A stretch of 64,000 nt of DNA from Planctomycetota bacterium (GTDB lineage Bacteria; Planctomycetota; UBA1135; UBA2386): NCBI GenBank assembly GCA_947501605.1, contig CANMWZ010000008.1:1-64000 (forward strand), in the 5' to 3' direction. The notes beneath the pieces are model-generated. The model ran no database searches, had not been told where the DNA came from, and saw only the letters and a list, made by a program, of their open reading frames with translations. This document shows positions 11,643 to 28,792 of the stretch, in pieces (within the stretch, counting starts at the first letter, position 1; every line of letters begins with the position of its first letter). Both the position numbers and the translations under genes were made by a program.

Positions 11643-12752
11643 ATGCCACGACTGCTGCATCCCGATTCCCCACTCCCTACTGCCCTCGTCCCTCTCGCTT
11701 TGGCTGCGGCACTCGCGACGAGTTCCGCGCGTGCGCAGGCGCAACCTCAAGCCGTCTCGCCCGCCGATCGAACCTCACTGGAGGGGAGCAGCTTCACACA
11801 CTTCCCACTCGGGCGACCCAACGCGCGGTTTCAGTTTCTGCATCAGGACCTGCCGGCAGGCTTCGCGCTGCACGGTCACGCGTTCCGCCGGGATGCCGCA
11901 CAAGTGCGCGGTGTTGTGGATGGGTTCGCCGCCGAACTCGAAGTCAGCCTGTCGATGTCTCCGCGTACACCAGCCACCGCGTCTGCAACATTCAGCGACA
12001 ACGCCGGCGCCGCAACCGTCGTACTGCCGCGCACGACGCTGGTCTTCCCTGCGACTGCGAGGCCGCAACTCGACCCGGCCACGAGCTTCGATCTGATCGT
12101 CCCCTACGCGCTGCCGTTCGTGCTGCCGCCGGGCGGAGGGACTCTCTGTGTCGATACCGTGATGTTCGCCAACGTGTCGTCGGCTGGGGTCGATCGCAGC
12201 CTCAGCATCTACCTCGACTCGCACGAGATCTCGACCACGACCAATGAACAGGCCGGCTTCCGCACCGGCAGCGGCTGCGCGGCCCTCGGCAGCACCACTC
12301 CTGCCACGGCGACGATGGCCCTGCGGCACCTCGGCTCCGCTCTGCAACTCGACGTGGCGGCGCGCAACGGGGTACCCAATCGCGGCAATGGCCTTTCGTA
12401 CAGCTATCTGGCGTTCGGCGTCGGACAAGTCACCTCGCCGTGGCCGTTTCGCCCGGCCTGTGTGCTGCAGACGTCGACCGAACACTGGTTCGTGCTCGGT
12501 CAGAACGATGCGGTTGGCACCTGCGATGCGAGCTTGCAGTGGCCCATGCTGCCCTCGGGCTATCGGGTCTACCTCCAGGCTGGCTCGATCGAACTGGGTA
12601 CATCCGATCTCGTGTTCTCCGATCTAACCCAGATGATGACGCCCCCTGCCGCACCGCTCACCTTGCCGGCGGCGCGAATCGCTGCTTCGACCAACCGCGC
12701 CTCGTTGACTGGCGCGGTTTCCACGGCGGTGCCGGTAACTCTGTTCTTCTGA
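11643..12752 (+). CDS. Secreted hypothetical protein carrying the shared C-terminal-type domain
   Basis: ATG 11643 with GGAGAG upstream; signal peptide ending ARAQ; TGSGC...YLAFG...VYLQAG...FSD segment. Confidence 0.8.
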   Translation: MPRLLHPDSPLPTALVPLALAAALATSSARAQAQPQAVSPADRTSLEGSSFTHFPLGRPNARFQFLHQDLPAGFALHGHAFRRDAAQVRGVVDGFAAELEVSLSMSPRTPATASATFSDNAGAATVVLPRTTLVFPATARPQLDPATSFDLIVPYALPFVLPPGGGTLCVDTVMFANVSSAGVDRSLSIYLDSHEISTTTNEQAGFRTGSGCAALGSTTPATATMALRHLGSALQLDVAARNGVPNRGNGLSYSYLAFGVGQVTSPWPFRPACVLQTSTEHWFVLGQNDAVGTCDASLQWPMLPSGYRVYLQAGSIELGTSDLVFSDLTQMMTPPAAPLTLPAARIAASTNRASLTGAVSTAVPVTLFF

Positions 12753-12791
12753 GGCGCCGCTCGGCGAGCGGGCCGCCGCGCTGCCGCGGGG

Positions 12792-14387
12792 TCAGTGCCG
12801 CGCCAGCACGCCGTCGACCGTGCGTAGGAGACCCGCTGGATTGCCATCGCGCAGCTCCGGCGGCAAGGTGGCCATCGGCGCATCCTGCCAGCAGTGCGGC
12901 CTGACCCAACGCAGGACCGAACGCGGTCCGACGGCGGTGAAACGGCTGTCACTGCTCGCCGGCCAAGGGCCCCCGTGCTGCATGGCGGTCGTGACCTCAA
13001 CTCCGGTCGGCACTCCGTTGTGCACGAGGCGTCCGACGCGACGACGAAGCGTCGCCAACAGTGCCTCGTGTTGGTCGAAGTCGGCATCGGTACCGTGCAC
13101 GGTGGCGGTCAGGTGCCCGTGCAGGGAAGCCGCAACCGCAAGCATCTCTGCACGACTGCGACACCGAACTGCCACGGTTGCCGGGCCGTAGATCTCTTGA
13201 CGCAACCTTGCGTGCTGCAACACCGCCGCTGCGTTCGTTTGAAGCAACACCGCAGCCACGGCCGTGGCGCTGTCTGTCGGCGCCGCCGCGGACTTGGCAC
13301 TCACGGTGACTCCGTGCAGGGATTGCACTTCGGCGCTGGCACGCGCGAAGCTCGAATGCAAATCCGGATGCACCATCGTGCCGTTGCTGCCGCGCCCGAA
13401 CGCCGCAGCGAGTTCGGCACCGAAGGCATCCGCGCCGGGGCCGTCGCACCACAGCACCATCCCTGGACTCGTGCAGAACTGTCCGCACGCCAGCAAAGCG
13501 GAAGCTGCGACCATGGACGCGATTGCAGGGCCGCGTTCGTGCAGCGCCCCTGGCAGCACAAAGACGGGATTCATCGACCCCATCTCCGCGAACAACGGAA
13601 TGGGCACGGGGCGCGCATTCGCCAGTCGACACAGCGCGGCGCCACCAGCAACGGACCCGGTGAAGCCAACAGCCGCGATCCCTGAATGCTCAACAAGCGC
13701 TTGCCCGACCGCGTGCGATCTGCCGTGCACCATGCCGAACGCGCCCAGCGGAACCTTGCACGTGTGCATGGCGGCGACGATCGCGCGCGCCACGCCTTCA
13801 CTGGTTCCGGGGTGCATCGGATGCGCCTTGACCACTACCGGACAGCCGACCGCGAGGGCCGAAGCCGTGTCGCCACCCGCCACGGAGTAGGCAAAGGGAA
13901 AGTTCGACGACCCGAACACCGCAACGGCTCCCATCGGCACCAACATCGTGCGCAGATCGGGTCGGCGTTGCGGGTGTCGCGCTTCGTCGGCGCGATCCAA
14001 GCGCGCATCCACCCACGAACCGTCCTCCAACAGGGCCGCGAACAACTCCAGCTGGAGCACAGTGCGTCCGCGTTCGGCGACGAGCCGCGCGCGCGGCAAG
14101 GCGGTCTCGAGTTCTGCCCGCTCGAGCAGTTCGTCGCCCGCCGCAACCAACTCGTGCGCGATTGCCCGCAAGAAGGCGGCGCGACGCTGGGCCGAGAGTC
14201 CCGCGAACGGAATCTCCGCGACACCAGCAGCGGCCACGGCGGCACCTACCTGCGCAACCGAAGCATCGGCAAACTCGGGCCCGAGTGGCTCGCCGGTCCT
14301 GGCTGCTGCGGCCGCGAACCGAGCACCCTGGCCATCCACTTCGATGCCGTCGATCCAGCATGCGCCGCCGAGCGGTAAAACGGTCAC
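12792..14387 (-). CDS. Aldehyde dehydrogenase (NADP+), alpha-ketoglutaric semialdehyde dehydrogenase-like
   Basis: VFGSSNFPFAYSVAGGDTASALAVGCPVVVKAHPMHPGT, GFTGS, FAEMGSMNP, catalytic GQFCTSPG, HGGPWPAS. GTG start overlaps the stop of the DapA-family gene. Confidence 0.92.
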   Translation of the reverse strand: MTVLPLGGACWIDGIEVDGQGARFAAAAARTGEPLGPEFADASVAQVGAAVAAAGVAEIPFAGLSAQRRAAFLRAIAHELVAAGDELLERAELETALPRARLVAERGRTVLQLELFAALLEDGSWVDARLDRADEARHPQRRPDLRTMLVPMGAVAVFGSSNFPFAYSVAGGDTASALAVGCPVVVKAHPMHPGTSEGVARAIVAAMHTCKVPLGAFGMVHGRSHAVGQALVEHSGIAAVGFTGSVAGGAALCRLANARPVPIPLFAEMGSMNPVFVLPGALHERGPAIASMVAASALLACGQFCTSPGMVLWCDGPGADAFGAELAAAFGRGSNGTMVHPDLHSSFARASAEVQSLHGVTVSAKSAAAPTDSATAVAAVLLQTNAAAVLQHARLRQEIYGPATVAVRCRSRAEMLAVAASLHGHLTATVHGTDADFDQHEALLATLRRRVGRLVHNGVPTGVEVTTAMQHGGPWPASSDSRFTAVGPRSVLRWVRPHCWQDAPMATLPPELRDGNPAGLLRTVDGVLARH

Positions 14388-15289
14388 GAGCCAACCTCCG
14401 GTCGACTGCTCAGGGCAGAACGAATCGTGCCCAAGGCCAGCTCGCGAGCGCTGCCGGTCAACGCCAGACGCGGCGCACGCACCCGTTCGTGACCGAGCCC
14501 GACTTCCTGTTGCACGAGCTTGATCAACTGCACGAACTCTGGAACCACGTCGAGACGGAGTAGCGGCAGGAACCACTCGTACAGTTCACGGGCTGCCGCC
14601 CGACCACCGCTGCGCGCTTGCTCGAACAACACGACCGATTCGCGCGGTAACGCATTGACGAGGCCTGCAACCCAACCGCTCGCACCGGCGGTAACGCCTT
14701 CGACCAACATGTCGTCGAGGCCGACCATCACATCGAGTCGCGCACCACATTGGCGGAGGATGGCGGTCACGCGCCGCGAGTCACCGCTCGATTCCTTGCA
14801 GGCAACGAGGTTCCTGTGCTTCTCCGCCAACGCCGCGATCCGCGACGGTTCGAAGTCAACGCCGTAGGCAAACGGGTTGTTGTAGAGCATGCAGGGCAGA
14901 TCGACCGCTTCTAGGACTGCCGAGACGTGGGCCTCCGCTTCCTCCCTCGGGCCTTTGTGCACGTAGGCCGGCAGCACCATCAGTCCCCGGCACCCAAGCT
15001 GCTGCGCCGCGCGAGCGAGAGCAATGGCATCGCGCGTCGACAGGGCCGCGATTCCTGGCATCACAGGTGTGTTGCCGCAGGCAGCAACCAACGTGCGCAG
15101 GACGGCGAGCTTCTCTTCGACGGACAGTGTCGCACCCTCACCCAACGATCCGAGCGGGATCACGCCGCTGCAGCCAGAACGCAGCAGTATCCGGCAATGC
15201 TCGGCCAAGAACGCATGATCGATCTCGCCCGAAGCCGTGAACGGCGTTGTGATCGCGGGCATCACGCCGCGGAAGGGACTCGTGCTCAT
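14384..15289 (-). CDS. DapA-family lyase, probable 1-pyrroline-4-hydroxy-2-carboxylate deaminase-like
   Basis: GVMPAITTPF, GSLGE (not GTTGE), MLYNNP, Schiff-base KESSGD, GWVAGLVNA; coupled to the KGSA dehydrogenase-like gene. Confidence 0.85.
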   Translation of the reverse strand: MSTSPFRGVMPAITTPFTASGEIDHAFLAEHCRILLRSGCSGVIPLGSLGEGATLSVEEKLAVLRTLVAACGNTPVMPGIAALSTRDAIALARAAQQLGCRGLMVLPAYVHKGPREEAEAHVSAVLEAVDLPCMLYNNPFAYGVDFEPSRIAALAEKHRNLVACKESSGDSRRVTAILRQCGARLDVMVGLDDMLVEGVTAGASGWVAGLVNALPRESVVLFEQARSGGRAAARELYEWFLPLLRLDVVPEFVQLIKLVQQEVGLGHERVRAPRLALTGSARELALGTIRSALSSRPEVGS

Positions 15290-15355
15290 TCCTCTACCGG
15301 AACTCAAGGAGACGGACGGCGCAAGACTCCGCTGCGTCGGCGGCAGCCTGCCGAA

Positions 15356-17056
15356 TCAGAAGTTGTTGCCGACGAACAGCCCGTTCGAGGTGTCGAGGTT
15401 CGACAGCGCATCGAGAGCGCCGGCTTGCAGATAGGCTGCGAGTCCAGGAATCGGCGGGATGCCCAGCACCAGCTGGCCGGCGCCGGCGAGGTTGGCAAAG
15501 AAAATGTAGCTCTGGTCCAGAGTCGCCAGCGCGTTGCAGCTCTGCCACGGGGCTGGCAGCGGGACACTGATCTGTTGCGTGCCGATCGCGAGAACCATGA
15601 GCGCGTTCGCGGGCGCACCGAGCGTGGTCAGGGTCAGCGTTTGGCCCAATCCCGTCGCCGGCGTGAGCTGCCCCGAGAGAATCAGATTCTGGCAGCGCAC
15701 GCCGTACGGTGTGAGCACGGCCCCTGGCACGAGCCCGAAGTAATCCGTAAGCGCGAGTCCGAGGTGCTGACCGCACAGCCGGTAGTCAGCTTCGGTGTTC
15801 CACGTCACTTGATCGGGGCCGCGGCCGTAGGTGCCTTCCAGGGTGATGGCCATCACCGGCTGCTCGAAGTTGGGGGAACCGAGCCAACTGGGCACCGCGG
15901 TCCAGCGATCATGCGACATCGACTCCACGAACGGACGCGAGGGGAAGCCAGCGCTGCTGCTCTGATTCACGCCAAGGTTGACGAAGGAGCTGCGCGCCCT
16001 GAGTGCATTGACCCAACTCAGCTCGCGCTGGTTGACGATCGGCAGCACACCTGTGGCCCCGGCGGTCCAGGCGGCGTTCGCGCTGTGCACGAAGTGAAAC
16101 GGATAGGCGATGTTGTGGGAGCTGTGCAGATTGAGCAGCACTTGAATCGGATTCTGGGCCGGAACGGCCGCCGAACCCATGAACTGCTCGATCTTGGTGC
16201 GCAGTGCGACGATCTCCGGTTGCGTGCTGGTGTACGGAGCTGCCCACTCGTCCTCGAGATTGACGGAGTTGGCGTTCACGCGGTAGTTGCCGAGAAAGAC
16301 CCCGTCAGGATTTGCCATGGGCACGATCGTGACGATGGCCTGGTCGAGCAACTGCAAGGCAGAGGGATCGCTGGAACAGAGCCAGTCAACGAGCCCTTCG
16401 CAGGTGAAGTAGCTGGTGCTCTCCGATGGGTGGATGCCCGAGTGGATCCACACGCGCCGCTTGTTGACGTCGGGCACGAAGGCGTCCGTGAACTCCAGCA
16501 TCTCGATCGTGCGCCCTTGCACCGAGGTCCCCAGCACCGTCGTGCTGCGCAGTTGCGGCCGAGTTTGTAGGGATGCGACCCACGCGTTCTTCCGTGCCAC
16601 AGTGTAGGGGAAGTACTTGGCAAGACGGAATGCGACCACCCCCGCCGGAACCACAAGGGAAAAGGTGTGGCGCCCGGCCGAGAGCACGGTCGGCGTTGCG
16701 CTCGTTGGACAACGCACATAGCTGCCGAACGTCGTGCCGTTGGTGCTCTGCGCCCAAACGGGCAAGATCACGTCGGAGTAGCCACTCGTGCTGTCGATCG
16801 TGAAGTTCAGCGTGACGCCCGCAGGATTGAGGTTGGCGATCTGGCAGTGCCACCAGCGGCGAAAACTCGTTGGCAACGACGGGTTGACGTTGTCGTTCTC
16901 GACCACGACGGTCACGTTGAACGCACCCGCGCCAGCGTTGGCAACCGTCGAGGAACGGATGCGCATCGTGTCTCCACTGGCGGATACGACCGGCGTTTGG
17001 CCAAGCCCGATCGCACTGAGCGCGAGAACGACGAAGGCAAAGGGATACCAAACCAT
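15356..17056 (-). CDS. Secreted M14-family zinc carboxypeptidase with shared C-terminal domain
   Basis: Signal peptide; HPSE zinc motif, MANPDG, NYRVN, LNLHSS, TLEGT. Confidence 0.88.
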   Translation of the reverse strand: MVWYPFAFVVLALSAIGLGQTPVVSASGDTMRIRSSTVANAGAGAFNVTVVVENDNVNPSLPTSFRRWWHCQIANLNPAGVTLNFTIDSTSGYSDVILPVWAQSTNGTTFGSYVRCPTSATPTVLSAGRHTFSLVVPAGVVAFRLAKYFPYTVARKNAWVASLQTRPQLRSTTVLGTSVQGRTIEMLEFTDAFVPDVNKRRVWIHSGIHPSESTSYFTCEGLVDWLCSSDPSALQLLDQAIVTIVPMANPDGVFLGNYRVNANSVNLEDEWAAPYTSTQPEIVALRTKIEQFMGSAAVPAQNPIQVLLNLHSSHNIAYPFHFVHSANAAWTAGATGVLPIVNQRELSWVNALRARSSFVNLGVNQSSSAGFPSRPFVESMSHDRWTAVPSWLGSPNFEQPVMAITLEGTYGRGPDQVTWNTEADYRLCGQHLGLALTDYFGLVPGAVLTPYGVRCQNLILSGQLTPATGLGQTLTLTTLGAPANALMVLAIGTQQISVPLPAPWQSCNALATLDQSYIFFANLAGAGQLVLGIPPIPGLAAYLQAGALDALSNLDTSNGLFVGNNF

Positions 17057-17153
17057 GAAGAGCAGAGTCGCACGTCACCGCAAGGTGGTCAACCACACTC
17101 GCGCGTCTTGTCGGCGAGGTTCGGCCCGACGTACAGACTCGCCAGTGCAGGGC

Positions 17154-17159: not shown

Positions 17160-17166
17160 CGGCCCC

Positions 17167-17814
17167 GTGCAAACCGCGTTCTACCGAGCTCTGGAGCAGG
17201 CCAACCGCGCGATCGGTAGCGCCGCCGATCCCACCGCGGCCGCGCATGCGGTTGCCGACCAGTTCGCCACGGCGGCGAAGGCACGCGAAACCTGGGCCTG
17301 CCAACAAGGATGCGCCCATTGTTGCCGGTTCCCGGTTGGCGTGACGGTTACCGAGGCACTTCGGCTGGGCGAGGCACTGCGGCTCGCACCGGTCGCCGAA
17401 CGCCAACGCCTGCTGCGGACCATCGAAGCAGAAGCTCGAGAATCGGCTGCCGTGTCGTGGTTGGAGCTCGCGGGGCGCCCCTGCCCGCTGCTCCATCGTG
17501 GCGCCTGTTCGCTGTATGCCGCTCGTCCTGTGCCGTGCCGTTCGCTGGGCTCCGCGGACGCCACCGCATGCGAACGGGCTGCCGATGGTGACGCTGTCCC
17601 CGTGCCGCTCTCGGACGATTCCTTCGCGGCGGGACTGGCAGTTGGGCAAGCTCTCGACGCTCGCACCGGGGCCCACGGTCATCGCGAGCTCCGGGCGGCG
17701 CTGTACGCGGTGTTGACCGCCGCGGACGACGCCAGAACGGTCGCTTTCATCGCGGCTCGACCGGCTGGCGGCGATGCCCAGGCGGCCGCTGCCCCCCGAT
17801 GCGGCCCGGGGTAG
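17167..17814 (+). CDS. YkgJ-family (CxxCxxCC) cysteine-cluster protein
   Basis: ACQQGCAHCC, CPLL, CSLYAARPVPCR. Confidence 0.88.
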   Translation: MQTAFYRALEQANRAIGSAADPTAAAHAVADQFATAAKARETWACQQGCAHCCRFPVGVTVTEALRLGEALRLAPVAERQRLLRTIEAEARESAAVSWLELAGRPCPLLHRGACSLYAARPVPCRSLGSADATACERAADGDAVPVPLSDDSFAAGLAVGQALDARTGAHGHRELRAALYAVLTAADDARTVAFIAARPAGGDAQAAAAPRCGPG

Positions 17815-17827
17815 ACTTCTGTCTCTC

Positions 17828-19840
17828 ATGCGCCTTCCTGACTCGCTGCGGACCGTTGGCATCGCCATAGTGGGCCTTGCCGTCGCGAACACGGCGCTGG
17901 CGCAGGTGCCGCGCGCGCAGTCTGCGATAGCGAGGGCTGCGGAACCGACGAGCGAAGGGCGGCTCGCGCCCTACCTACGGGCGCGACTCGCGAGCTCACG
18001 GCGGGACGAACTGGTGCCTGTTTACTTCTGTCTCCGGGAGCGTCTCGCGGAAGCGCATTGGTTTCCGCGAGTGCAACGACTGCCGCTGCACCAACGACGT
18101 CATCTCGTCGTGGCGGAATTGCGTGCGCATGCCGCGCGGACGCAGGCCAGCTTGCTAGCTGTACTGCGGGACGATCCCACAGCAGTGGAAGCGCTCTCGA
18201 TCCAATCGAATTGGCTCGGCAACTTCGTGCAGTGTCGAGCGACCCCAGCCGCGATTCTGCGTGCGGCAGCACTGCCATCGATCGATCGCGTGGCCCTCGA
18301 CGTGGCCCCTGCACTGGCGGAAGTTGCCGACCGCGCGGATCGCGTCGAGAGCCCTGCCGCAGTCCTGGCTGCCGATGCCTGTCTACCGCCACCGTCACTG
18401 CCGATTCCCGGGGACGCCGCTGTGTTCACGCGCGCATTCTCGGTCTGGAACGCCGGCATCCGCGGTCAAGGCATCGTGATCGCAAACGTCGACGGCGGCC
18501 TTACGCAACACAACGACCTCGACCTTCGGCGTTGGATCAACCTCGGCGAGATCCCAGGCAACGGCCTCGACGATGACCAGAATGGCTTCATCGATGACGT
18601 TCATGGTTTCGCCTTCGATCTCGGTACCGCGCAGCTCGACGACGGCGGCGGGCACGGCACGATGACCGCGGGGCTCCTGGTTGGCGATGGCAGTTGCAGT
18701 GGTATCGCCTATGGCCAGGCGCCACAGGCCCAGGTGATGACCTGTCGCGTACTGTCCGAGACCTCACACTGGAATGCCGTGCAGTACGCGATCGCGATGG
18801 GCGCCGATGTACAGACCAGTTCGTTCAGCTACAAAGCGAGCTTCGTCCCGCCGCCCGATTACCGGATGCACCGCGATGTCGCCACTGCGTCACTGGCCGC
18901 CGGGTTGATTCGCTGCAACTCACCAGGCAACGATGCGGTGTTCGCCAACGACCCCACGAGCGCAGCCCGCGTCCCTCTCAACATTGCGGCTCCGGCCTGC
19001 GTCCCGAGTCCCTACCGCGATCCAAGCCAGGGTCCCGGTGGCTTGTCGGGAGTGATTGCCGTCGGCGCGCTTCGCGTGCTGCAGGACCAGCTCGATCCAG
19101 CGTCACCGTTCGGCCCCTTCGCGTGGTCACTGAGCGACGTGCAACAGAACCTGCCTGGCTATCCAACCGCCGCCTGGGATGTGGCGCACCACGACGATTA
19201 TGCGTTCGCCCAGGGCTTGGCCCAAGGGCTGCTCAAGCCCGACGTGCTCGGACCAACCCAGACGACGACTCTGACTTCGGGGCCATGTCGCGTGGCGACC
19301 TTTGCTGGCACATCGAATGCGACGCCATGCACGGCAGGCACCATCGCCCTCTGGAAGTGCGCCAACCCGAGTCTCACGCCCGAGGACGCAGCGATGCTGG
19401 TGCATCAAACGGCGAGCGACCGTGGCTCGATCCCAGGCAAAGAGAACGGTTACGGCGCGGGGCTGGTCGATGCCGAGCGTGGCTTTCTGCGTGCTCTCTG
19501 CGTGCACCGCGTCGACTTCATGTCGGCGTGGAACGTGGAGCACTCGATCGCTAGCGGTCCGGTGCACCTCGCCATCGACGGTGCCGTCAACTCCCTGGCG
19601 ATTGTCGCGGTCGGCTACCAGCGCACACCGACACCTGTGGGCCCACTCGTGCTCGGCATCGGCCCCGTTGTTGACATCGTGTTCGGCGGGGTAACAGATA
19701 GCGCCGGCGACCTGACAGCATCCATCCCGATCGGGCCGTGGCTCCAGGGGCAAACCTTGGCGACGCAGGCCGTGCTGTGGGACCAGGTGCTCACCGGCAG
19801 GTTGCTCGACAGCAACGTCATCGAGATTTCGTTCCGCTGA
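17828..19840 (+). CDS. Secreted S8 (subtilisin-like) serine peptidase with shared C-terminal domain
   Basis: Signal peptide ending ALAQ, prodomain, triad NVDGG / GHGT / GTSNATP, oxyanion SPGND, GLDDDQNGFIDDVHG loop, LKPDV, YGAGLVDA. Confidence 0.92.
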   Translation: MRLPDSLRTVGIAIVGLAVANTALAQVPRAQSAIARAAEPTSEGRLAPYLRARLASSRRDELVPVYFCLRERLAEAHWFPRVQRLPLHQRRHLVVAELRAHAARTQASLLAVLRDDPTAVEALSIQSNWLGNFVQCRATPAAILRAAALPSIDRVALDVAPALAEVADRADRVESPAAVLAADACLPPPSLPIPGDAAVFTRAFSVWNAGIRGQGIVIANVDGGLTQHNDLDLRRWINLGEIPGNGLDDDQNGFIDDVHGFAFDLGTAQLDDGGGHGTMTAGLLVGDGSCSGIAYGQAPQAQVMTCRVLSETSHWNAVQYAIAMGADVQTSSFSYKASFVPPPDYRMHRDVATASLAAGLIRCNSPGNDAVFANDPTSAARVPLNIAAPACVPSPYRDPSQGPGGLSGVIAVGALRVLQDQLDPASPFGPFAWSLSDVQQNLPGYPTAAWDVAHHDDYAFAQGLAQGLLKPDVLGPTQTTTLTSGPCRVATFAGTSNATPCTAGTIALWKCANPSLTPEDAAMLVHQTASDRGSIPGKENGYGAGLVDAERGFLRALCVHRVDFMSAWNVEHSIASGPVHLAIDGAVNSLAIVAVGYQRTPTPVGPLVLGIGPVVDIVFGGVTDSAGDLTASIPIGPWLQGQTLATQAVLWDQVLTGRLLDSNVIEISFR

Positions 19841-19863: not shown

Positions 19864-21555
19864 TCAGTAGCCACCGGTCTCGCGCAGCACTTCCTCGACC
19901 GTCGAGTGGCCGCTGAAGATGGCTTCGAGACCGCAGGTGCGCAGCGGCACCATGCCGCTCTCGATCGCTGCGTTGGTGAGCGCCGAAGTGCTCGCATTCG
20001 AGAGCATCAACTCACGGAGTCGATCATCCACCACGAGGATCTCGGTGATCGCCATGCGACCCTTGTAGCCGGTGAAGTTGCAGGTCTCGCAGCCCTTGCC
20101 TTGGGCGAACTTTTTGGCACCGATCAGTGACCGATCGACGCCGAGTCGGCGGAGGACCTCGTCAGAAGGCTCGTACTCCGACTTGCATCCCTTGCAGACG
20201 CGGCGAACCAACCGCTGCGCCAGGATCCCCTGCAACGTGGCCGTTAGCAGGAACGGTTCGATGCCGATGTCGGCGAGGCGCGTGATCGCCGATGGCGCAT
20301 CGTTGGTGTGAAGCGTCGAGAACACCAAGTGCCCGGTCAGACTCGCTTCGATCGCGGTTTGCGCGGTCTCACGGTCGCGAATCTCGCCGACCAGGATCAC
20401 GTCCGGGTCCTGACGCAGAATCGTACGCAGCACCTTGCTGTAGGTGACTTCGATCTCCTCGTTGACCGGGATCTGGATGATGCCCTCGAGGTCGTACTCG
20501 ACCGGATCCTCGACGGTGATGATCTTCACATCCTCACCGTTGGCCTCGTTGAGCATCCCGTACAGCGTGGTCGTCTTTCCCGAACCGGTCGGTCCGGTGA
20601 CCAGCACGATGCCGTGCGGCAGCTCGAGGAACTTCCGCAGCTGCGCCTTCGCGGTCGTCAGCAAGCCGAGGTTGTCGAGATCGAGGGCTACCACCGAACG
20701 GTCGAGCACGCGCATGACGGTCGATTCGCCAAACATCGTCGGCAAAGTCGACACACGCAGGTCGACCGAACGACCACCAACTGTCAATTCGATGCGGCCA
20801 TCCTGAGGTAGCCGCGTCTCGGCGATGTCGAGGTCGGCCATGACCTTGATGCGTGCAATCAGCGCTTCGGCTAGATGCGGGGGCGGCGCCTCGAGCTCGA
20901 ACAACGAACCGTCGACTCGATAACGAATCTTGAAGTCCCCTTCGAATGGCTCGAGGTGGATGTCCGATGCCTTGTCGCGGATGGCTTGGTAGAGGATGTA
21001 GTTGAGCAGCTTGACCACGGGTGCCGCCGCAGCCATGGCCGTCTTGTCTTCCAGGTCGATCTTGCCGCCCTGTTGCTGCAGTTCCTGCACCAACTGATGC
21101 ATGCGTTGCTTCGCCTGCCCGGCATCCTCTTGGTAGTACTTCTCGAGACCCGCCTGGATCAGGGACTCGTCGGCGATGACGCCCTTGACCTCACAGCCCG
21201 TCGTGAACGAGAGGTCGGCGAGCATCGACAGGTTGACTGGATCCGCGATTGCGATCGTCAGTGTCTTGCCGGTCAGTTGGACCGGCAGAGCTGCGAACGC
21301 ACGCGCAGTCGCGTGGTCAACTTTGGCGATTGCCTCTTGCTGCGGCGCGGTCTTCGCGAGATCCCAAAAGGTCAGACCGGCCTGCTCGGCGAGTGCGCGA
21401 GCGAGGTCCGATCTGCCGATGTGCCCCAACTCCATCAGGATCTCGCCGATGCGCCCGCCCTTGTCGCGTTGCTGCATCAGGGCTTCTTGCACCATGCCTT
21501 CGTGGATGGCCCCGTTGTCCTTGAGGATCTGCCCGAGCAGTCGCCGCGCCGCCAT
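19864..21555 (-). CDS. PilB/GspE-family assembly ATPase with MshEN-type N-terminus
   Basis: GPTGSGKTTT, TVEDPVE, LRQDPDVILVGEIRD, GHLVFSTLHTND, tetracysteine CKGC/CETC. Confidence 0.95.
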   Translation of the reverse strand: MAARRLLGQILKDNGAIHEGMVQEALMQQRDKGGRIGEILMELGHIGRSDLARALAEQAGLTFWDLAKTAPQQEAIAKVDHATARAFAALPVQLTGKTLTIAIADPVNLSMLADLSFTTGCEVKGVIADESLIQAGLEKYYQEDAGQAKQRMHQLVQELQQQGGKIDLEDKTAMAAAAPVVKLLNYILYQAIRDKASDIHLEPFEGDFKIRYRVDGSLFELEAPPPHLAEALIARIKVMADLDIAETRLPQDGRIELTVGGRSVDLRVSTLPTMFGESTVMRVLDRSVVALDLDNLGLLTTAKAQLRKFLELPHGIVLVTGPTGSGKTTTLYGMLNEANGEDVKIITVEDPVEYDLEGIIQIPVNEEIEVTYSKVLRTILRQDPDVILVGEIRDRETAQTAIEASLTGHLVFSTLHTNDAPSAITRLADIGIEPFLLTATLQGILAQRLVRRVCKGCKSEYEPSDEVLRRLGVDRSLIGAKKFAQGKGCETCNFTGYKGRMAITEILVVDDRLRELMLSNASTSALTNAAIESGMVPLRTCGLEAIFSGHSTVEEVLRETGGY

Positions 21556-21557
21556 GG

Positions 21558-22622
21558 CTAGTCAGCTCCGGGCGCGCCAAGACGCGTCGCCATGGTCTTG
21601 CGATCGAACGCGTGTTCCAGCGCGGTGTCTTTGGTGATGCGACCTTCGCGGTAGAGCTCCATCAGGTGGTCGTCCATCAGCACCATGCCTTGTCGACGAC
21701 TGGTCTGGATCACCGACGGGATCTTGAAGGTCTCGCTCTTACGGATGTGGTTCTCGATCGCTGGCGTGTTGAGCAGGACTTCAAAGGCTGCGACGCGGCC
21801 CCCGCTGGCACCAGGCAGCAGAATCTGTGAGATCACGGCGACCAGCGACAACGACAACTGCGAGCGGATTTGCTCTTGCTGTTCCTTTGGATACTGATCG
21901 ATGACGCGATCCACAGTGCGCGCCGCACCTGTGGTATGCAGCGTTCCGAACACCAAGTGACCGGTTTCGGCCGCCGTGATCGCGGCCGACGTCGTCTCCA
22001 GGTCGCGCATTTCCCCGAGCAGGATCACATCGGGATCCTGGCGCAAGACGCGACGCATTGCTTCGCCGAAGGTAGGCACGTCGCTGCCTACCTCCCGCTG
22101 GGTCATCTGCGACTTCTGATGGGTGTGGTAGTACTCGATCGGGTCCTCGATCGTGACGATGTGGACATCGCGATTGCGGTTGATCCAATCGACCATCGTT
22201 GCGAGTGTCGTGGTCTTGCCGGAGCCCGTTGGCCCTGTCACCAGGACTAGGCCGCGATGGAGATTGAGCAGTTCGCGACAGGTCTCGGGTAGACCGATTT
22301 GGTCGAAGGTCAGCAGCTTCTGCGGGATCTGGCGCATCACCAGCCCGCGCATTCCCTTCTGGGTCAGCACGCTGACGCGGAAGCGGCACTTGTCTTTGTG
22401 CGCGAAGCCGAAGTCCGTGGTGCCTGTCTTCTGCAGCTCTAGCCAATTCCGCTCTGGGCAGATGGACCGGGCGAGTGCCTCGGTGTCCGCAGTCTGAAGA
22501 CTGGCATCGCCGACTTCGACGAGGTGTCCGCCGATGCGGAACACCGGGCGCCGCCCCACTGACAAGTGCATGTCGGCAGCGCCCTTCTCGTGGGCGAGGT
22601 CCATCAGTGCGTGGATGTCCAT
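21558..22622 (-). CDS. pilT: Type IV pilus retraction ATPase
   Basis: GPTGSGKTTT, TIEDPIE, QREVG, LRQDPDVILLGEMRD, AAETGHLVFGTLHT, AIENHIRK (AIRNLIRE-like); lacks the PilB N-domain. Confidence 0.93.
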   Translation of the reverse strand: MDIHALMDLAHEKGAADMHLSVGRRPVFRIGGHLVEVGDASLQTADTEALARSICPERNWLELQKTGTTDFGFAHKDKCRFRVSVLTQKGMRGLVMRQIPQKLLTFDQIGLPETCRELLNLHRGLVLVTGPTGSGKTTTLATMVDWINRNRDVHIVTIEDPIEYYHTHQKSQMTQREVGSDVPTFGEAMRRVLRQDPDVILLGEMRDLETTSAAITAAETGHLVFGTLHTTGAARTVDRVIDQYPKEQQEQIRSQLSLSLVAVISQILLPGASGGRVAAFEVLLNTPAIENHIRKSETFKIPSVIQTSRRQGMVLMDDHLMELYREGRITKDTALEHAFDRKTMATRLGAPGAD

Positions 22623-22653
22623 TCTTGGTTACGTCGGAGCCTTCGCGGAGGCG

Positions 22654-24303
22654 TCACATCGCAGCGGTGACGCGCAGCAGTTCTTGGATACTGGTCTTGC
22701 CTGACAGGACCTTCCGGGCCCCATCTTGCATCAGGGTGCTCATGCCACCGGAGCTCAGCGCCTGCTCGCGCAGCCGGACTGTCGGTTCACCCCGGAAGAT
22801 GCGGTCGCGAAGCGCCTCATCCAACTGCATCATCTCATAGATGCCGATTCGGCCGCGGTAGCCACTGTGCTCGCACGCAGCACAGCCAACGGCTCGCATC
22901 GGCCGCGCGCTGCCAGTCACATGGCTGCGGTCGAGACCGATGCTGCGCAACTCGATGTCGTCGAGCTCCACCGGCAAGGCGCACTTCGGGCACAGCACGC
23001 GAACGAGGCGTTGGGCCAGAACCGCCTGCACCGCGGCTGCGACCAGAAACGGCTTGACCCCCATGTCGCACAGTCGGGTGATCGCTGACGGGGAGTCGTT
23101 GGTGTGCAGCGTCGAGAACACGAGGTGGCCCGTGAGCGCCGCTTGCACGGCGATCTCGGCAGTTTCGCGGTCGCGAATCTCGCCGACCAGGATGACATTC
23201 GGCGCTTGGCGCAGCATCGCACGGAGGATGCGCGCAAACGACAAGCCGATGCGCGATCGAACTTGGCATTGGTTGATCCCGCGGATGTTGAACTCCACCG
23301 GATCCTCGGCCGTGATGATCTTCACGTCAGGCCGATTGAGCTGCTGCAACGCGGCGTAGAGCGTTGTGGTCTTGCCCGAGCCCGTGGGGCCGGTGACCAG
23401 CACGATGCCGTTGGGCCGGGCAATGCAACGTTCGAAGCGTTCGCGGTCAGGTCCGCCGAAGCCGAGCGCGTCGAGACTGAGAAGACCCTTCTCCTTGTCG
23501 AGGAGACGCATCACGATCGTCTCGCCGTGGTTGCCAGGTAGCACTGACGTGCGCACATCGACCGCTCGCCCCATCGATTGGATGGCGATGCGGCCGTCCT
23601 GCGGCTTGCGCTTCTCGGCGATGTCGAGTCCAGCCATGATCTTGAGCCGCGAGGTCAATGGCGCAAGCAAGCCGGCGTCGAGAGAGGCGATCTCTTTGAG
23701 CACGCCGTCGATTCGATAGCGAATGCGCAGCCGCTGCTTAAAGGGCTCGACGTGCACGTCGCTCGCACGCTGCTCGAGCGCGTCGTCGAGCGTCTTCTGT
23801 ACCAGGCGGATGATCGGGGCGTCTTCCGATTCCTGCACACTCGTAGCGGCCTTCTGCCCACTCGTGGCACTGCTTCCACCCCCGAGCTTCCGGATGTGGT
23901 CCTTTAGTGCCGCCGGCGGCATGAGCGCACACTGCACCGTGCAGCCAGCGAGGAACGCTAGATTGTCGGCGACGAAAACTTTGAGAGGGTCATCGATGGC
24001 GAGCCACAGAACCCCGTCTTTGTAGAGGACCGGCAGTGCCTCGTTGGCGACGACCTGTTCGAGCGGCACGCGCTTCAGCGCTTCTGCCTGCGGCACGAAC
24101 TTGGCCGGATCGACGAACTTGAGCCCGTGGGCTTTGGCGACGCAGCGCCAGACCGCGCTCTCGTCGGCTAGCCCAAGAGCGACCAACGTGCGTTCCAGGG
24201 ACTGGCCGCGCGACTGGGCGGTGCCTTCGGCCCGCGACAGCTTCTCGGCATCGATAACGCCGGCGTCCAACAGGGCCCGGCGGAGATTCGCGGTTGCGCT
24301 CAA
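22654..24303 (-). CDS. Second PilB/GspE-family assembly ATPase
   Basis: RASDVHVEP, PQDGR, GPTGSGKTTT, TAEDPVE, GEIRD, STLHTND, CPKC/CAAC; TTG start. Confidence 0.95.
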   Translation of the reverse strand: MSATANLRRALLDAGVIDAEKLSRAEGTAQSRGQSLERTLVALGLADESAVWRCVAKAHGLKFVDPAKFVPQAEALKRVPLEQVVANEALPVLYKDGVLWLAIDDPLKVFVADNLAFLAGCTVQCALMPPAALKDHIRKLGGGSSATSGQKAATSVQESEDAPIIRLVQKTLDDALEQRASDVHVEPFKQRLRIRYRIDGVLKEIASLDAGLLAPLTSRLKIMAGLDIAEKRKPQDGRIAIQSMGRAVDVRTSVLPGNHGETIVMRLLDKEKGLLSLDALGFGGPDRERFERCIARPNGIVLVTGPTGSGKTTTLYAALQQLNRPDVKIITAEDPVEFNIRGINQCQVRSRIGLSFARILRAMLRQAPNVILVGEIRDRETAEIAVQAALTGHLVFSTLHTNDSPSAITRLCDMGVKPFLVAAAVQAVLAQRLVRVLCPKCALPVELDDIELRSIGLDRSHVTGSARPMRAVGCAACEHSGYRGRIGIYEMMQLDEALRDRIFRGEPTVRLREQALSSGGMSTLMQDGARKVLSGKTSIQELLRVTAAM

Positions 24304-24310
24304 CGCTACG

Positions 24311-24319
24311 AAGGTAGCA
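24311..24319 (-). promoter_or_regulatory. Candidate extended -10 (TGCTACCTT), 7 nt before the TTG at 24303
   Basis: Minus-strand read TGC-TACCTT-CGTAGCG-TTG; no Shine-Dalgarno. Confidence 0.4.
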
Positions 24320-24418
24320 AGTTAGCGGCCCGCGTCGAGCGCTGAGACGCGCCGAGTTGTCTGGATGCACAACCCGCGCTGGAGCAGGTCGGTCGCCGAG
24401 GCTACCGCTCGCACGCGG

Positions 24419-25627
24419 TCAGCGGACGAAACCGTTGAACAGGATCTTGCGGCTCGGGACGGCCGGGTGATTCAGGTCCACCACCAAGTCGCCGCGGAGC
24501 AATCCAGTCGGTGCGTCGCTGGAGATCTCCAGCTCGACGATCAGCTTCTTGCCGTCCTTGCTCTTTGTTGCCGTCACGAACTTAGGGTCCATCGTGAGGT
24601 TTTCGAGTCGAATGGAGGTCGCATCGAGATCGGAGTCGTCGTTGGGCTCGAAGGTCACCTTCTCCACCCGCTTCTGGCCCTTGCGGATCATGCCGAGTGT
24701 CAGAAACGTGCCCGGCTTGACCTCGAGCGGGCCAAGAATCGCCGCGCTGATGCGCACGGTGATCACGGGTTGGCCAGGAACGTCGGTGTAGAACTTGAGT
24801 TGCCCACCGCCCAGTGCCTCGGCGCTGCTCGGTTGGTAGGTACCCCGAATCGTCCACGTCGCGACACCAGGCGAGGCCGACTCCTTCGTGTAGGTGACCG
24901 CGAAGTCCTTGTCGGAGTTGTCGCTGCCCGTGATGTTGAAGTCCGGCTGCAACGGCGATTGAACCGTCACCGTGAACTCGCGCTTCTCATTCCAGACCAT
25001 CTGGTTGAGGTTGACCTCATTTGGGGTCACCACGAAGACCTGCGCCCCGGTGGCTTCCCACTTCAGCTTGATCATCGGCAGTTGCGGGTCGGTCGTGTGG
25101 ATGTCCATGGTCGCTTGGCGCGGACCTGCGATTCCACCCATCTCCATCTGTACTTCGACCTCGCCAACGGCACCCGGCGGCACCTTGATGACCGCAACTG
25201 TCTCCTCCCGCTCATTGTCCCCTTCGGTGATCACATGGCGGATGCCAGGGTTTGGCTTCTTGCTGTAGCGGTAGCGCTCACCGCCGATCGTGATGGTGGC
25301 GCTGCTGCATTGGCAGCTACCCTGCAGGCCGCGCCATTCGACCTCGGTTGCGAGCGGGTTGGTGAACGGAAAGCGCCCGACCACAGTGTCTTGGCTGTAG
25401 TGCGTCCCGAAGTCCTGGTCGGTCGATGCAAACCACGAGTTGCCACCGGTCCCGCGACCCTCGACCCTGCGTTCCTGCCCTGGCTGGATCTGCGGCGCGG
25501 ACTCCTTCTTGACCGCTGGCTGCGCACCCTCGACGGCTTTCGGAGCATCCTGGCCCAGCAGTCTTGGTTGGAGACCGACAACGAGACCCGCGACAACGAT
25601 TACCAGCAGCTTCGAGTTCATGGACAT
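24419..25627 (-). CDS. Secreted DUF1573-domain (Ig-like) protein
   Basis: Signal peptide; DFG...FPFTN...GSCQCS pattern typical of DUF1573, followed by further beta-rich domains. Confidence 0.75.
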   Translation of the reverse strand: MSMNSKLLVIVVAGLVVGLQPRLLGQDAPKAVEGAQPAVKKESAPQIQPGQERRVEGRGTGGNSWFASTDQDFGTHYSQDTVVGRFPFTNPLATEVEWRGLQGSCQCSSATITIGGERYRYSKKPNPGIRHVITEGDNEREETVAVIKVPPGAVGEVEVQMEMGGIAGPRQATMDIHTTDPQLPMIKLKWEATGAQVFVVTPNEVNLNQMVWNEKREFTVTVQSPLQPDFNITGSDNSDKDFAVTYTKESASPGVATWTIRGTYQPSSAEALGGGQLKFYTDVPGQPVITVRISAAILGPLEVKPGTFLTLGMIRKGQKRVEKVTFEPNDDSDLDATSIRLENLTMDPKFVTATKSKDGKKLIVELEISSDAPTGLLRGDLVVDLNHPAVPSRKILFNGFVR

Positions 25628-25766
25628 GCCTAAGGAGAGAGATGCTTGCACCCACCGCAACGCGGTGCCCAGTCGGCGCCATCGCAGGATGCGCGGTGCT
25701 GGACTGCACTCTTCGTGCAGGCAGCGGGGGCGAGTATAGCTGTGAGCGACAGAAAAACTCCCAAGC

Positions 25767-26432
25767 ATGCCCAACTGTCGAGCGGTCCCCATCGTCCTGT
25801 TCCTCTGTTCCCTGCCGCTAGGTGGCTGCTGCAGCATGGCCCGGCTCTTCTGCGGCCCCGATCGCACGTCCTGGGTGCCGATCGCCTACGACTCGCCAAG
25901 TGCCACCCTAGCGACCTTTCTCGAGGCTGTACGACGCGATGACCCGGCCAAGATCTACCAGTGCCTCGCCGCGAGCTTCGTGAAGCAGCACGGGCTTGAT
26001 GGGCTCGTCGTCAATGCGGCATGGGAACGCCTGCGCAACGAGGTCACGGGCCTCCACCTGCTCGGCTACGCGGAGGTGCCTAAGGCGCCACTTCGGGCGG
26101 ACGACGGCGGCGTGACCTACGAAGTAACCGTCGAGGGAGTCATCCTGCGGCTGGATCTCGTGCGGCAGAGTTTCTGGGAACTGCACTACCGCGGGCGCGA
26201 CGGCAAAGCGCGCGAGTCCTCGACCGCCCTCGACTTCGACACGCTGAATGGGCTACTTCGCATCGAGGCAGCAGAACCGGATCCCGTGGACGACTTGCCG
26301 CAGACGAAGATCGCCCTGGAGCCGCGTGTGGTACTGCACCCCGGATCGCCTTCCCTGCGACTCGCGGACATCGACCGGCTTGCCGTTGGCCGCGAATGGA
26401 AGATCGCCGAGATCCGGACGGTCGCCAACTAG
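25767..26432 (+). CDS. Hypothetical probable lipoprotein
   Basis: Hydrophobic N-terminus with lipobox-like LGGC; SPSATLATFLEAVRRDD suggests an NTF2-like start (inference). Confidence 0.65.
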   Translation: MPNCRAVPIVLFLCSLPLGGCCSMARLFCGPDRTSWVPIAYDSPSATLATFLEAVRRDDPAKIYQCLAASFVKQHGLDGLVVNAAWERLRNEVTGLHLLGYAEVPKAPLRADDGGVTYEVTVEGVILRLDLVRQSFWELHYRGRDGKARESSTALDFDTLNGLLRIEAAEPDPVDDLPQTKIALEPRVVLHPGSPSLRLADIDRLAVGREWKIAEIRTVAN

Positions 26433-26506
26433 CGCGGACTCCGCGGCTCAGGCAACAGGCGCGCCCGCGCCCGTTGCCTTCGATCCAAAGGGCTCCGCCG
26501 GGTCCG

Positions 26507-28792
26507 TCAGAGGCTGCAGAGGCGGAAACGCATGCCGTTGCTGGCCGACAACTGGCCGCCCGGACCACCCGTATCGAACACGCCGATCTGCGTGTAGAGG
26601 TAGAGGTTGTCCAGGAACGGGTCGTTGGGCACCGACAGCGGCCACGATGCCGTGCCGACGCCAGCGGCACCTGGCGTACCCGTGGTGAGCGACCACAGAT
26701 AGAAGGTCCCGTTGTTGGGGTCGACCAGCACCTGCACCCCGAGCGCCGGGGCGCTGATGGGCACAAAGCCAACCGCGAGGACCGCGAAGGCGGTGCCAAG
26801 CAGATTGCTGCCGTCGACGCTTGGCGTTAGGCCCAGCATCGGTTTCCCGGTCAACACCTGCGTCGGAATGATGCCTCCCGTGCCGGCCGTACCCAAACCG
26901 TAGAAGGTCGGAGGCACGAAGTCCGTCTCGGTGAACACCTCGATGTCGTCGATCTGCCAGCCACCGGCGAAGGCCGTTGCGTTGCTGATCAACTCGAAGC
27001 GCAGTTGCACTGTGCTGGCCGCGTTGGTGATTGCCGAGATGTCGATGTCCACAAGCTGCCAACTCGTGTCCGCCGTCAGTGAGGGCACGGTCGTGACCAG
27101 CGTGCCATTGACCAGGACGCGACCGGTGTCGCCAGCATTGAAACTGCCCCATCGACGGTAGCGGAGCCGAAGCCCCTGAACGCTGCTCGTCGGCACCACT
27201 GGCGATTGCAGCCAGTTGCTGACGTTGTTCTGGTAGCTGCCGTTGAATCCAGGGCCGCCCAGGTCGTTGCCCCAACAAGCAGTGCCGGAGTAGGCACCCG
27301 CCGGATCGCGCCACGCAAAGCCGGCTGACGACCCCGAGATCCCCGCCGCACCAGCGCGCTGCCAGTCATCCTGCGTCGCGACAAACCCGTGAGTCCAGCC
27401 GAGGTCGGTCTCACAATCGTCGAAGAAGACGCGGACGCGCGTCCCGACGAAAAACTGGTGCTCCCCCTGCTGCGGGCTGCGCCGCGACACGATGCTGTCC
27501 GCCGCTTCCAGGTGGTAGCGGACCGTCGAAATCGCGTTTTGACCCGGGATGCTCGCCACCCAAGAGTTCGGGATCCCGCCCGGCGCCATCGGGACGGTGA
27601 CCGGAGTGCCACCGTTCACCGAGTAGACCACGTTGAGCGACGCCAGAGTGTTGCTGGTCGCAACGTTGGCGAGCACCGTGTAGGGCCCATCTTCATTGCC
27701 GGTGTCGACGAGCGGCGCATGCGTGATCGACAGGTCACTGATCTGCGGCTTGACGATGTAGAGGCCCGTGCTGATGTCGCTCATCAGGATGTTGCCCGAG
27801 GGCAAGAACGGGTAGCAGCCCCACGCACCGTTGAAGCCCCCCGACGCGCCTGGCCATGTGTCGTACGAGGCGACCTCGAATGGGCTGTTGGGGTTGCTGA
27901 TATCGATGCAGCGGTAACCCTCGGTGTACCACGAGCAGTGGCACAGGTTGCCAATGATGTATGCGTTGTGCGGGATCGAACCGAAGTTGGTCGAGTACTG
28001 GCCGAGACCAACCGGCGCCGACTTGTTGGTGATGTCCCAGAACTTGACGACAGCACCGTTCACCTCGTCGGTCGTCGCCGCAATCGTGCCGGCAGCGTTC
28101 GGCCAGCAGTTGTGCGTGAACACACCCGGCGTGGACACGTTGCTGAGGATCGGTGCCGGCAGCGCGGCGGTCGTCATGATCCGCAACGTGCCGTTGTAGA
28201 TCATCGAGCCGTAGATGAAGCCGTTCTGAACCTTGATGTCGTGGAAGTAGGTCGAGTTCGGGTTGGTCGAGTTGCGCGGTAGCAAGTTGCCGACGAAGGG
28301 CGGGTTCGTCGGATTGGCCGCAGCGTTGAACACCGGCACGCCCGGACTCGAACCCGACTGCGTGCCGTTGCAGTAGATCAATCCCGTCGACTGGTCGATG
28401 CTGATGGTGTGCGTGTTGCCGAATGTCGTCGCGCCAACCGTGCCGATCAACACCGGGACATCGGCGTTCGTCAGGTCGATGACCTGGAAGCCACCGGCCG
28501 CCTCGGTGCAGACGTAGGCGTAGGTGCCGTAGGTCTCGCAATCGCGCCACTGCGAGGTCGGTCCAACGATGAACGCGCGCTCGATGGGCGTTGCCGGGTT
28601 GGTCACATCGATGATGGCGGTGCCGGTGTTGGCCATCAGGATCGCGTACTCCTTGCCATTGGGCGCGGCGTAGCCCCAGATGTCGTTGTAGGGCGCGTGC
28701 AAGTTCATCGTCCCCAGCAGCTGGCAGTTGACGCCCTGGGCGAGGAGTGGCGAAGCTACCGCCAGGAGAAAGAGGATTGAGCGTGTCAACAT
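26507..28792 (-). CDS. Secreted choice-of-anchor B / LVIVD-repeat protein with jelly-roll domain and shared C-terminal domain
   Basis: Signal peptide; NDIWGY...EYA, WRD, HTISID, FHDI, THNCW, PHN, YTEG, GAWGCYPFLPSG...SDISTGLYI; then FFDDCE...W, GWQIDDI. Confidence 0.88.
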   Translation of the reverse strand: MLTRSILFLLAVASPLLAQGVNCQLLGTMNLHAPYNDIWGYAAPNGKEYAILMANTGTAIIDVTNPATPIERAFIVGPTSQWRDCETYGTYAYVCTEAAGGFQVIDLTNADVPVLIGTVGATTFGNTHTISIDQSTGLIYCNGTQSGSSPGVPVFNAAANPTNPPFVGNLLPRNSTNPNSTYFHDIKVQNGFIYGSMIYNGTLRIMTTAALPAPILSNVSTPGVFTHNCWPNAAGTIAATTDEVNGAVVKFWDITNKSAPVGLGQYSTNFGSIPHNAYIIGNLCHCSWYTEGYRCIDISNPNSPFEVASYDTWPGASGGFNGAWGCYPFLPSGNILMSDISTGLYIVKPQISDLSITHAPLVDTGNEDGPYTVLANVATSNTLASLNVVYSVNGGTPVTVPMAPGGIPNSWVASIPGQNAISTVRYHLEAADSIVSRRSPQQGEHQFFVGTRVRVFFDDCETDLGWTHGFVATQDDWQRAGAAGISGSSAGFAWRDPAGAYSGTACWGNDLGGPGFNGSYQNNVSNWLQSPVVPTSSVQGLRLRYRRWGSFNAGDTGRVLVNGTLVTTVPSLTADTSWQLVDIDISAITNAASTVQLRFELISNATAFAGGWQIDDIEVFTETDFVPPTFYGLGTAGTGGIIPTQVLTGKPMLGLTPSVDGSNLLGTAFAVLAVGFVPISAPALGVQVLVDPNNGTFYLWSLTTGTPGAAGVGTASWPLSVPNDPFLDNLYLYTQIGVFDTGGPGGQLSASNGMRFRLCSL

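Follow-up and report, generated by a model that had tools for sequence, protein, structure and literature searches.

What does a shared segment do on four exported proteins with different cargo parts? The question arises from a 64,000-nt stretch of Planctomycetota bacterium contig CANMWZ010000008.1 (hereafter, the window; the source genome is labelled G000), which encodes an M14 carboxypeptidase, an S8 protease, a choice-of-anchor B (CoAB) protein and a protein denoted 11643. An earlier note on this DNA had pointed to a beta-type segment common to all four and had proposed that it is an undescribed, lineage-specific secretion tag, anchor or docking domain. We find that the segment is a domain (hereafter, the tag domain) belonging to a real, unnamed and very large family. 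It lies outside the families of type IX secretion system (T9SS) C-terminal domains (CTDs), dockerins and PEP-CTERM signals, though it works like a choice-of-anchor tag. The function that we place first, at about even confidence, is that of a retained, uncleaved, non-covalent surface tether on proteins exported by the type II secretion system (T2SS), replacing a lipid anchor or a dockerin; the location outside the cell, the T2SS route and the tethering itself are what we infer from the evidence below.

Family, predicted fold and placement of the tag domain

The four motif strings quoted in the earlier note all occur in the translations where it had placed them. Pairwise similarity between the four segments is weak (up to ~10 bits). 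An iterated profile started from the CoAB tail only recruited the other three at round 2 (independent E-value, iE, <1e-3; none was among the 30 round-1 open reading frames, ORFs) and converged at 105 of 43,704 six-frame ORFs, with the best reversed-ORF decoy at iE 1.7; the alignable segment claimed for the four secreted proteins is thus picked up by this profile in the M14, S8 and 11643 proteins. Iterations seeded by the M14, S8 or 11643 segment alone each matched only the seed itself. The iE values in the window, for proteins already in the profile, are 2.8e-20 (CoAB), 1.6e-15 (M14), 8.3e-12 (11643) and 1.4e-9 (S8). When the refined profile was run on the G000 gene set (3,571 genes, called with our own codon model), 131 carriers were detected at iE <1e-3 and 132 at <0.01, the best decoy scoring 0.022.

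That the module lacks a name, as the note had supposed, was confirmed: searches of 102 aligned members against Pfam and NCBIfam gave no relevant family at E ≤0.1, the shared segment of the four window proteins is also without a model in either database, and a family profile search detected no sequence relatives in the PDB below E 0.7. Clustered at 50% identity, the profile matches number 32,806; no Pfam family is common to the 30 nearest Atlas clusters, and those listed are hypothetical proteins, mostly from Planctomycetota. The named relatives of the window genes are likewise from planctomycetotal metagenome-assembled genomes (MAGs). We found no description of the domain in the literature searched, a body from which most subscription journals and all supplements lay outside, and a term search of the Saltatorellota preprint (10.1101/817700) returned neither "secretion" nor "C-terminal".

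The CoAB copy was modelled as a beta-sandwich (predicted local distance difference test, pLDDT, 95), for which the best structure matches are generic immunoglobulin (Ig) domains (Z-score up to 8.8; root mean square deviation, rmsd, 2.6-3.3; 90-97 residues aligned); no solved T9SS CTD is present among the best 50 structure matches listed. The domain is accordingly predicted to be an Ig-like beta-sandwich of ~105-140 residues, in agreement with the beta-type character ascribed to it earlier. ML-family lipid binders, the top Foldseek matches, were rejected as relatives (TM-score 0.37-0.42, rmsd 8-9 Å). Two additions to the Ig core were identified, an arm at the N-terminus and a hairpin that follows strand C. 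Cysteines in the arm and the hairpin co-occur (53 members with both, 25 with neither and 24 with one only; p 2e-7), and therefore an arm-to-insertion disulfide is likely. Conserved positions are mostly Gly and Pro, with one Gln and a Ser-Asn pair; charged residues make up 7-8% of the domain, and Lys only 0.3%. The grand average of hydropathy (GRAVY) of the domain is 0.51, whereas cargo windows stand at 0.08, with a 95th percentile of 0.43.

Each of the 132 carriers contains a single copy, never a tandem or double one. C-terminal placement, as described in the earlier note, is the rule for the family (of 132 copies, 117 end no more than 10 aa from the stop, nine are followed by 11-60 aa, and six are N-terminal; 146 copies are terminal among the 150 top representatives) and for the M14, S8 and CoAB proteins, but not for protein 11643, in which the copy is internal and ~35 residues follow. 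The six N-terminal copies precede an FGE-sulfatase domain (three) or kelch-like regions (three). Three genes of G000, coding for 135-141 aa, consist of a signal peptide and the domain only. Elsewhere in this genome (G000:C1:306489-308940, L013), three tandem genes encode proteins of 200-210 aa in which a short segment lies between signal peptide and tag domain.

The cargo is diverse: BLAST sorts 119 cargo parts into 66 clusters, and Pfam searches on 87 carriers identified proteases, sulfatase, di-haem cytochrome c peroxidases, FG-GAP, kelch, CHRD, PKD and other domains, with many carriers lacking any match. In the window, the cargo parts of the M14, S8 and CoAB proteins show no mutual BLASTP matches at E ≤1, that of 11643 being too short for inclusion.

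Cargo composition, distribution and dockerin replacement

Signal peptides and lipoboxes were called throughout with home-made heuristics; by these, the signal peptides reported earlier are present on all four window proteins, each ending at Gln. The cargo of carriers, with the domain removed, is poor in Lys plus Glu (K+E): among G000 signal-like proteins of at least 250 aa with a Gln site, the median is 2.9% (n = 84) for carriers vs 9.2% (n = 310) for non-carriers, and 81 of 84 carriers vs 25 of 310 non-carriers fall below 5%. Ten non-carrier homologues served as a fold control, and in seven of these the aligned region is richer in K+E (three peroxidases, a sulfatase, a GHL10 protein, an FGE-type protein and an unannotated one); of the remaining three, one is a fragment at a contig end and two are probably diverged carriers. 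Extracellular proteins are described as being built from cheaper amino acids than periplasmic ones (PMC2932507, in part); K+E is our own proxy rather than the measure of that paper. The composition of the cargo is of the extracellular type and suggests a location outside the cell.

Among exported proteins with a whole-protein K+E below 5%, the domain is found on 100 of 145 non-lipoproteins and on none of 16 lipoproteins (Fisher p 4e-8). None of four low-K/E lipoproteins carries it in G166, a distant 2.4-Mb genome of which 1.93 Mb (~82%) was read, and no lipobox was detected among 65 signal-bearing representatives. Gln follows the signal peptide in 79 of 83 carriers and in 361 of 590 other signal-like proteins (shifted control, 24 of 83 and 125 of 590); being this widespread, it was discarded as a carrier-specific mark. 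Throughout G000, signal peptides mostly end before Gln, reminiscent of the Q-rule of Bacteroidetes; the window genes 11643, 17056, 17828, 28792 and 31669 are examples. Term searches of PMC5837995 and PMC10653852 returned no mention of Planctomycetes. No PF05096 glutaminyl cyclase was detected in G000, the M28-type cyclase lying outside this search.

In a sample of the phylum, 66 of 301 genomes match the profile, 60 with many copies and six with one; 235 have none. Five of the six single-copy genomes were inspected, and in three of these the match is on a short or high-numbered contig and could reflect contamination or transfer. Within the order, 160 of 161 genomes match, G302 being the only domain-free one, so that the proposed lineage specificity is borne out. 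Even the distant G166 encodes 25 carriers, 24 of them terminal, with a cargo K+E of 1-7% where measured. In a quick RpoB tree (30 genomes, support from the Shimodaira-Hasegawa-like approximate likelihood ratio test only, midpoint root), all 22 domain-rich genomes group with G302 and two single-copy genomes (support 96), and G302 is nested within the order (99), beside two carriers (95).

In this nested genome, dockerins take the place of the tag domain. There are 39 dockerin matches in G302 vs 0 in G000, and all six that were read to the stop are C-terminal. In one case, a G302 dockerin protein and a G000 carrier have cargo in common (34% over 320 aa). The dockerin loci resemble the rpoB locus of G302 itself in GC content and tetranucleotides (r 0.85 vs 0.67 for the next). 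The swap in G302 rests on one MAG. The CoAB family shows a similar alternation, the G306 member ending in the tag domain and the G022 member in a dockerin-like tail; the G302 CoAB has neither within the part read. Two apparently identical 978-aa CoAB genes lie inverted, ~5 kb apart, in G302 (G302:C7:21141 and 27350; L240, L242). Like type I dockerins (PF00404) and the GC-type planctomycete dockerin tails, the tag domain is a single retained module on each exported protein. Dockerins are Ca-binding helical EF-hand pairs and are far more conserved within a genome, whereas the tag domain is predicted to be all-beta and has no identified cohesin-like partner; PF00404 has no matches in G000 or among the domain members.

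These patterns bear on the idea that the domain has nothing to do with sorting and is a general accessory module, which binds ligands, aids folding or keeps proteins in the periplasm and has been passed around by domain shuffling. Such a module could well have a generic Ig fold (predicted, best Z-score 8.8), tolerate different positions and turn up as single copies outside the domain-rich families. Its all-or-none spread across the phylum and order, the 66 unrelated cargo clusters, the exclusion from lipoproteins and the dockerin replacement are hard to reconcile with this idea, which we consider quite unlikely.

Predicted insertion within protein 11643 and the question of cleavage

Protein 11643, for which neither Pfam nor NCBIfam yielded a match, belongs to an eight-member G000 group in which ~35-45 residues follow the domain. 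Its 175-residue head is also present in six carriers with a terminal tag; in five of these, a counterpart of the 11643 tail precedes the tag, the best window of a profile built from the tails falling at the end of the head (5 to 19 bits); in the sixth, the best window does not fall there. Thus, in eight paralogues including 11643, the domain separates the cargo head from the last two cargo strands. The model of 11643 (pLDDT 96) has two classes of structure match: single jelly-roll domains of ~155-170 residues (PHR, CBM-like, phage tail tip) that align across residues 1-336 (Z-score 8.1-10.0, rmsd 3.2-3.3, 133-152 residues aligned), and Ig or SOD-like sandwiches confined to ~165-305, the Ig folds aligning to ~180-303. 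Among 98 homologues besides 11643 itself, the domain is detectable in 81, and all 81 have a tail of 20-39 aa. Mutual information with average product correction (MI-APC), computed on 101 sequences, places head-tail pairs near the top, though with noise. Because the jelly-roll matches span the domain and the tail is kept in homologues, the tag is predicted to occupy a loop of the cargo fold, and its excision would be expected to remove two strands of that fold. In the single-copy genome G176 (C12; L069), the domain lies within a cytochrome c peroxidase-like protein with ~320 residues after it.

The six N-terminal, three stand-alone and inserted copies argue against a cleaved signal of the T9SS or sortase type, and a C-terminal signal in this sense is the part of the original proposal that is not supported; its anchor or docking part fits the lipoprotein exclusion and the dockerin replacement. 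For the inserted, N-terminal and stand-alone copies cleavage is excluded, though they may still be recognised. Some T9SS CTDs are not removed, and C-terminal extension is tolerated without effect (PMC11285876, in part), so that internal placement is compatible with recognition.

One close analogue is the type A CTD of the T9SS (TIGR04183/PF18962, Bacteroidota), with which the tag domain shares a single, here predicted, Ig-like sandwich, attachment to many unrelated Sec-exported proteins, a usually terminal position and low identity between paralogues; in both types of genomes, signal peptides are commonly followed by Gln. The tag domain is longer (105-140 vs 67-108 aa) and has an arm, a hairpin and a likely disulfide; it is almost free of Lys, whereas T9SS CTDs are described with a conserved Lys in the last strand (PMC11285876, in part). 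It also occurs in N-terminal (six), stand-alone and inserted (eight) positions, and none of 102 members matches TIGR04183 or PF18962 at E ≤0.1. PorV was found in none of five genomes (three of them represented by a single contig), although the control was detected in B. thetaiotaomicron; SprA (one genome) and PorP/SprF (five genomes) also gave no match, and neither did their positive control.

Similarly, the tag domain resembles PEP-CTERM/exosortase, LPXTG/sortase and GlyGly-CTERM signals, the choice-of-anchor tails, in filling the tail slot of a CoAB protein (TIGR04312), but it is a folded domain without motif, transmembrane (TM) helix or basic tail, and its inserted copies are incompatible with cleavage. 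The absence of a TM helix plus basic tail noted earlier holds for the four proteins, and a regular-expression search found no PEP-CTERM-like tail among the called genes of G000. A cleaved C-terminal sorting signal with transpeptidation, by T9SS/PorU or by sortase or exosortase, would explain why most copies end within 10 aa of the stop and would suit the predicted Ig fold and the cargo, the types of which resemble T9SS cargo. Given the placement of the remaining copies, the PorV result, the lack of Por_Secre_tail matches and the near-absence of Lys, we judge it very improbable.

Probable export route, proposed tethering and candidate partners

If the domain is a surface tether, the carriers, enzymes and adhesins with one copy each, would enter the Sec pathway by way of a signal peptide ending, by our heuristic, at Gln. 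They would then fold in the periplasm, where the arm-to-insertion disulfide would form and cytochrome c peroxidase cargo would acquire haem c, and would cross the outer membrane through the T2SS, the only exporter of folded proteins that was found. Outside, the hydrophobic, nearly uncharged domain would bind a surface component, namely, outer-membrane lipid or glycan, some protein or other copies of itself, and would do so through fold and hydrophobicity rather than a strict sequence code.

G000 encodes six secretins, including one in a GspD-E-F operon, and the streamlined G166 has kept GspD, E and F together with pseudopilins. The T2SS secretin has an orthologue in all 22 domain-rich genomes; because one is also present in G302 and some domain-free genomes, the T2SS is a plausible route and not a specific partner. 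Short ORFs (230-325 aa) that match only the periplasmic N-domains of GspD, possibly free adaptors, were noticed at G000:C46:20826-21203, and several in G147.

The main alternative, possible but doubtful, is that the domain acts as an uncleaved, folded export handle and universal tag, read in the periplasm by the T2SS or another translocon and committing the cargo to secretion, much like the non-cleaved T9SS CTDs of PorU and PorZ. Such a handle would be expected in one copy per protein, with a poorly conserved sequence on a conserved fold, as in T9SS CTDs, and would cover most low-K/E non-lipoprotein exports (100 of 145); internal copies would still be recognisable, given the uncleaved and extendable T9SS CTDs (PMC11285876, in part), and both the T2SS secretin in every domain-rich genome and the lack of an anchor partner would be in line with it. 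Stand-alone genes for a signal peptide and the domain would, however, export nothing, the same secretin orthologue persists in G302 and domain-free genomes, and 45 low-K/E non-lipoproteins, some of them probably diverged carriers, are without the domain. Lipoproteins of the same outside-type composition also lack it, and T2SSs do export lipoproteins.

The domain could instead be a self-assembling block that polymerises into a surface lattice or fibre, with stand-alone copies as filler and fused cargo as decoration. The stand-alone genes in G000 and G166, the hydrophobic, uncharged make-up and the lack of a separate partner gene are consistent with polymerisation; set against these, the G166 stand-alone gene is not the best match of any G000 stand-alone gene, 22% identity between paralogues is low for a common lattice interface, and no tandem copies exist. 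We regard a lattice as unlikely.

Several observations count against the tether that we favour. Paralogue identity is 22% (38% for the best six) vs 62% for six G302 dockerins, which fits an export signal read at the level of the fold equally well or better, and the hydrophobicity of the domain may be buried beneath the extra arm and hairpin. The domain is never in tandem, unlike avidity anchors, which occur in tandem. The extracellular location is drawn from composition and our home-made signal-peptide heuristic; one carrier combines an amidase with a Germane domain and could act in the periplasm, and another (C45:27685) has a possible, ambiguous lipobox. None of 17 domain-rich genomes but four of 26 others (43 genomes in all) have a dockerin expansion (at least 12), a weak contrast between genomes that are not independent. 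Since no PF00963 cohesin was detected in G302, G012 or G000, the dockerins of G302 and G012 are orphans, and the swap is no proof of docking. No binding partner for the domain was found among the candidates examined, and large Ig lipoproteins, one of these candidates, were set aside because they occur in 16 of 23 domain-rich genomes, with weak matches in G302 and three others.

These large lipoproteins (850-1290 aa) have Big_5-like Ig repeats and a glycine-rich region, are low in K/E, in most cases have a lipobox, and are expanded in some families of the order. Another candidate, a cluster of genes for a secretin, a TPR protein, an unannotated protein, ExbB, two ExbD and a second secretin (G000:C10:73794-85646, L077; L113 in G166), is possibly a proton-driven secretin system; it was rejected as a partner because it is phylum-wide: 44 of the 47 Planctomycetota genomes have a match to the L077 secretin, frequently two that lie ~10 kb apart. 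Intersecting the envelope genes of G000 with the 82% of G166 left 83 shared genes, of which 75 were scanned; most belong to known families, and ~19 have no match at E ≤1e-8.

The tag-domain family is huge, nearly universal in the order and unnamed, so that the domain is a label for what is probably the exoproteome of a clade that is mostly uncultured. A tether would represent a new way of displaying enzymes without lipid, sortase or cohesin; an export handle would make testable the open question of T2SS substrate determinants, described as still incompletely defined in a 2026 review (PMC13721041, in part). A broader conjecture, which we hold only tentatively and as rather doubtful, is that of an undescribed, clade-wide surface-display system in which the T2SS or a new receptor reads an Ig handle that is universal, uncleaved, independent of position and functionally interchangeable with orphan dockerins. 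If so, the domain would be the first T2SS address tag known to be portable, and dockerins without cohesins would find an explanation too. The natural insertion in 11643, the stand-alone copies and the dockerin-using relative provide ready-made constructs and controls.

The features discussed are compiled in Table 1. The middle of the CoAB protein is choice-of-anchor J-like, just below the cut-off (NF038128, 28.8 bits vs 30).

Table 1. Coordinates of the carriers, their tag domains and the large Ig lipoprotein loci (window positions unless a contig is given)
Feature	Position	Strand	Remarks
Protein 11643 gene	11643..12752	+	369 aa; signal peptide, jelly-roll head (predicted, CBM/PHR-like), inserted tag domain, tail completing the jelly-roll
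Tag domain inside protein 11643	12243..12647	+	mature residues ~168-302; profile envelope 12267-12644
Protein 11643 tail, two beta-strands of the cargo fold (predicted)	12648..12749	+	model pLDDT 96-98
M14 carboxypeptidase gene	15356..17056	-	566 aa; signal peptide; PF00246, E 3e-20
C-terminal tag domain of the M14 protein	15371..15703	-	profile search
S8 protease gene	17828..19840	+	signal peptide; PF00082, E 3.6e-23; start at 17828 likely, ATG upstream at 17774
C-terminal tag domain of the S8 protein	19520..19834	+	short variant without N-terminal arm and cysteines
CoAB gene	26507..28792	-	761 aa; signal peptide; TIGR04312, E 2.5e-55
C-terminal tag domain of the CoAB protein	26519..26899	-	profile search; copy used for the structure model (pLDDT 95)
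Large Ig lipoprotein family loci	G000:C1:177207-188411, C20:9214-14594, C31:1-2030		L080, L083, L084

Between the carriers, the window contains genes for the ATPases pilB-pilT-pilB (19864-24303), which converge on the S8 gene, followed by one gene for a DUF1573-like Ig protein and one for a probable lipoprotein without annotation (24419-26432). The ATPase trio and the DUF1573 neighbour were dismissed as partners, as they are not linked to carrier orthologues in G166; there, the trio is kept (L147), with no carrier orthologues assigned beside it. F-type ATP synthase genes (alpha, delta, b, a and neighbours), identified by eye from translations, occupy 6553-11486 and appear ordinary. Contigs from an RNA library extend over much of the region, one of them spanning the CoAB gene alone; they were not taken as evidence of expression, which contigs cannot show. 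Elsewhere in G000, three low-K/E exported proteins with a CarboxypepD_reg N-terminus (C38:18979-22809 and C9:26795-28498; L092, L087) share a different C-terminal segment, perhaps a second type of tail or just a sign of paralogy.

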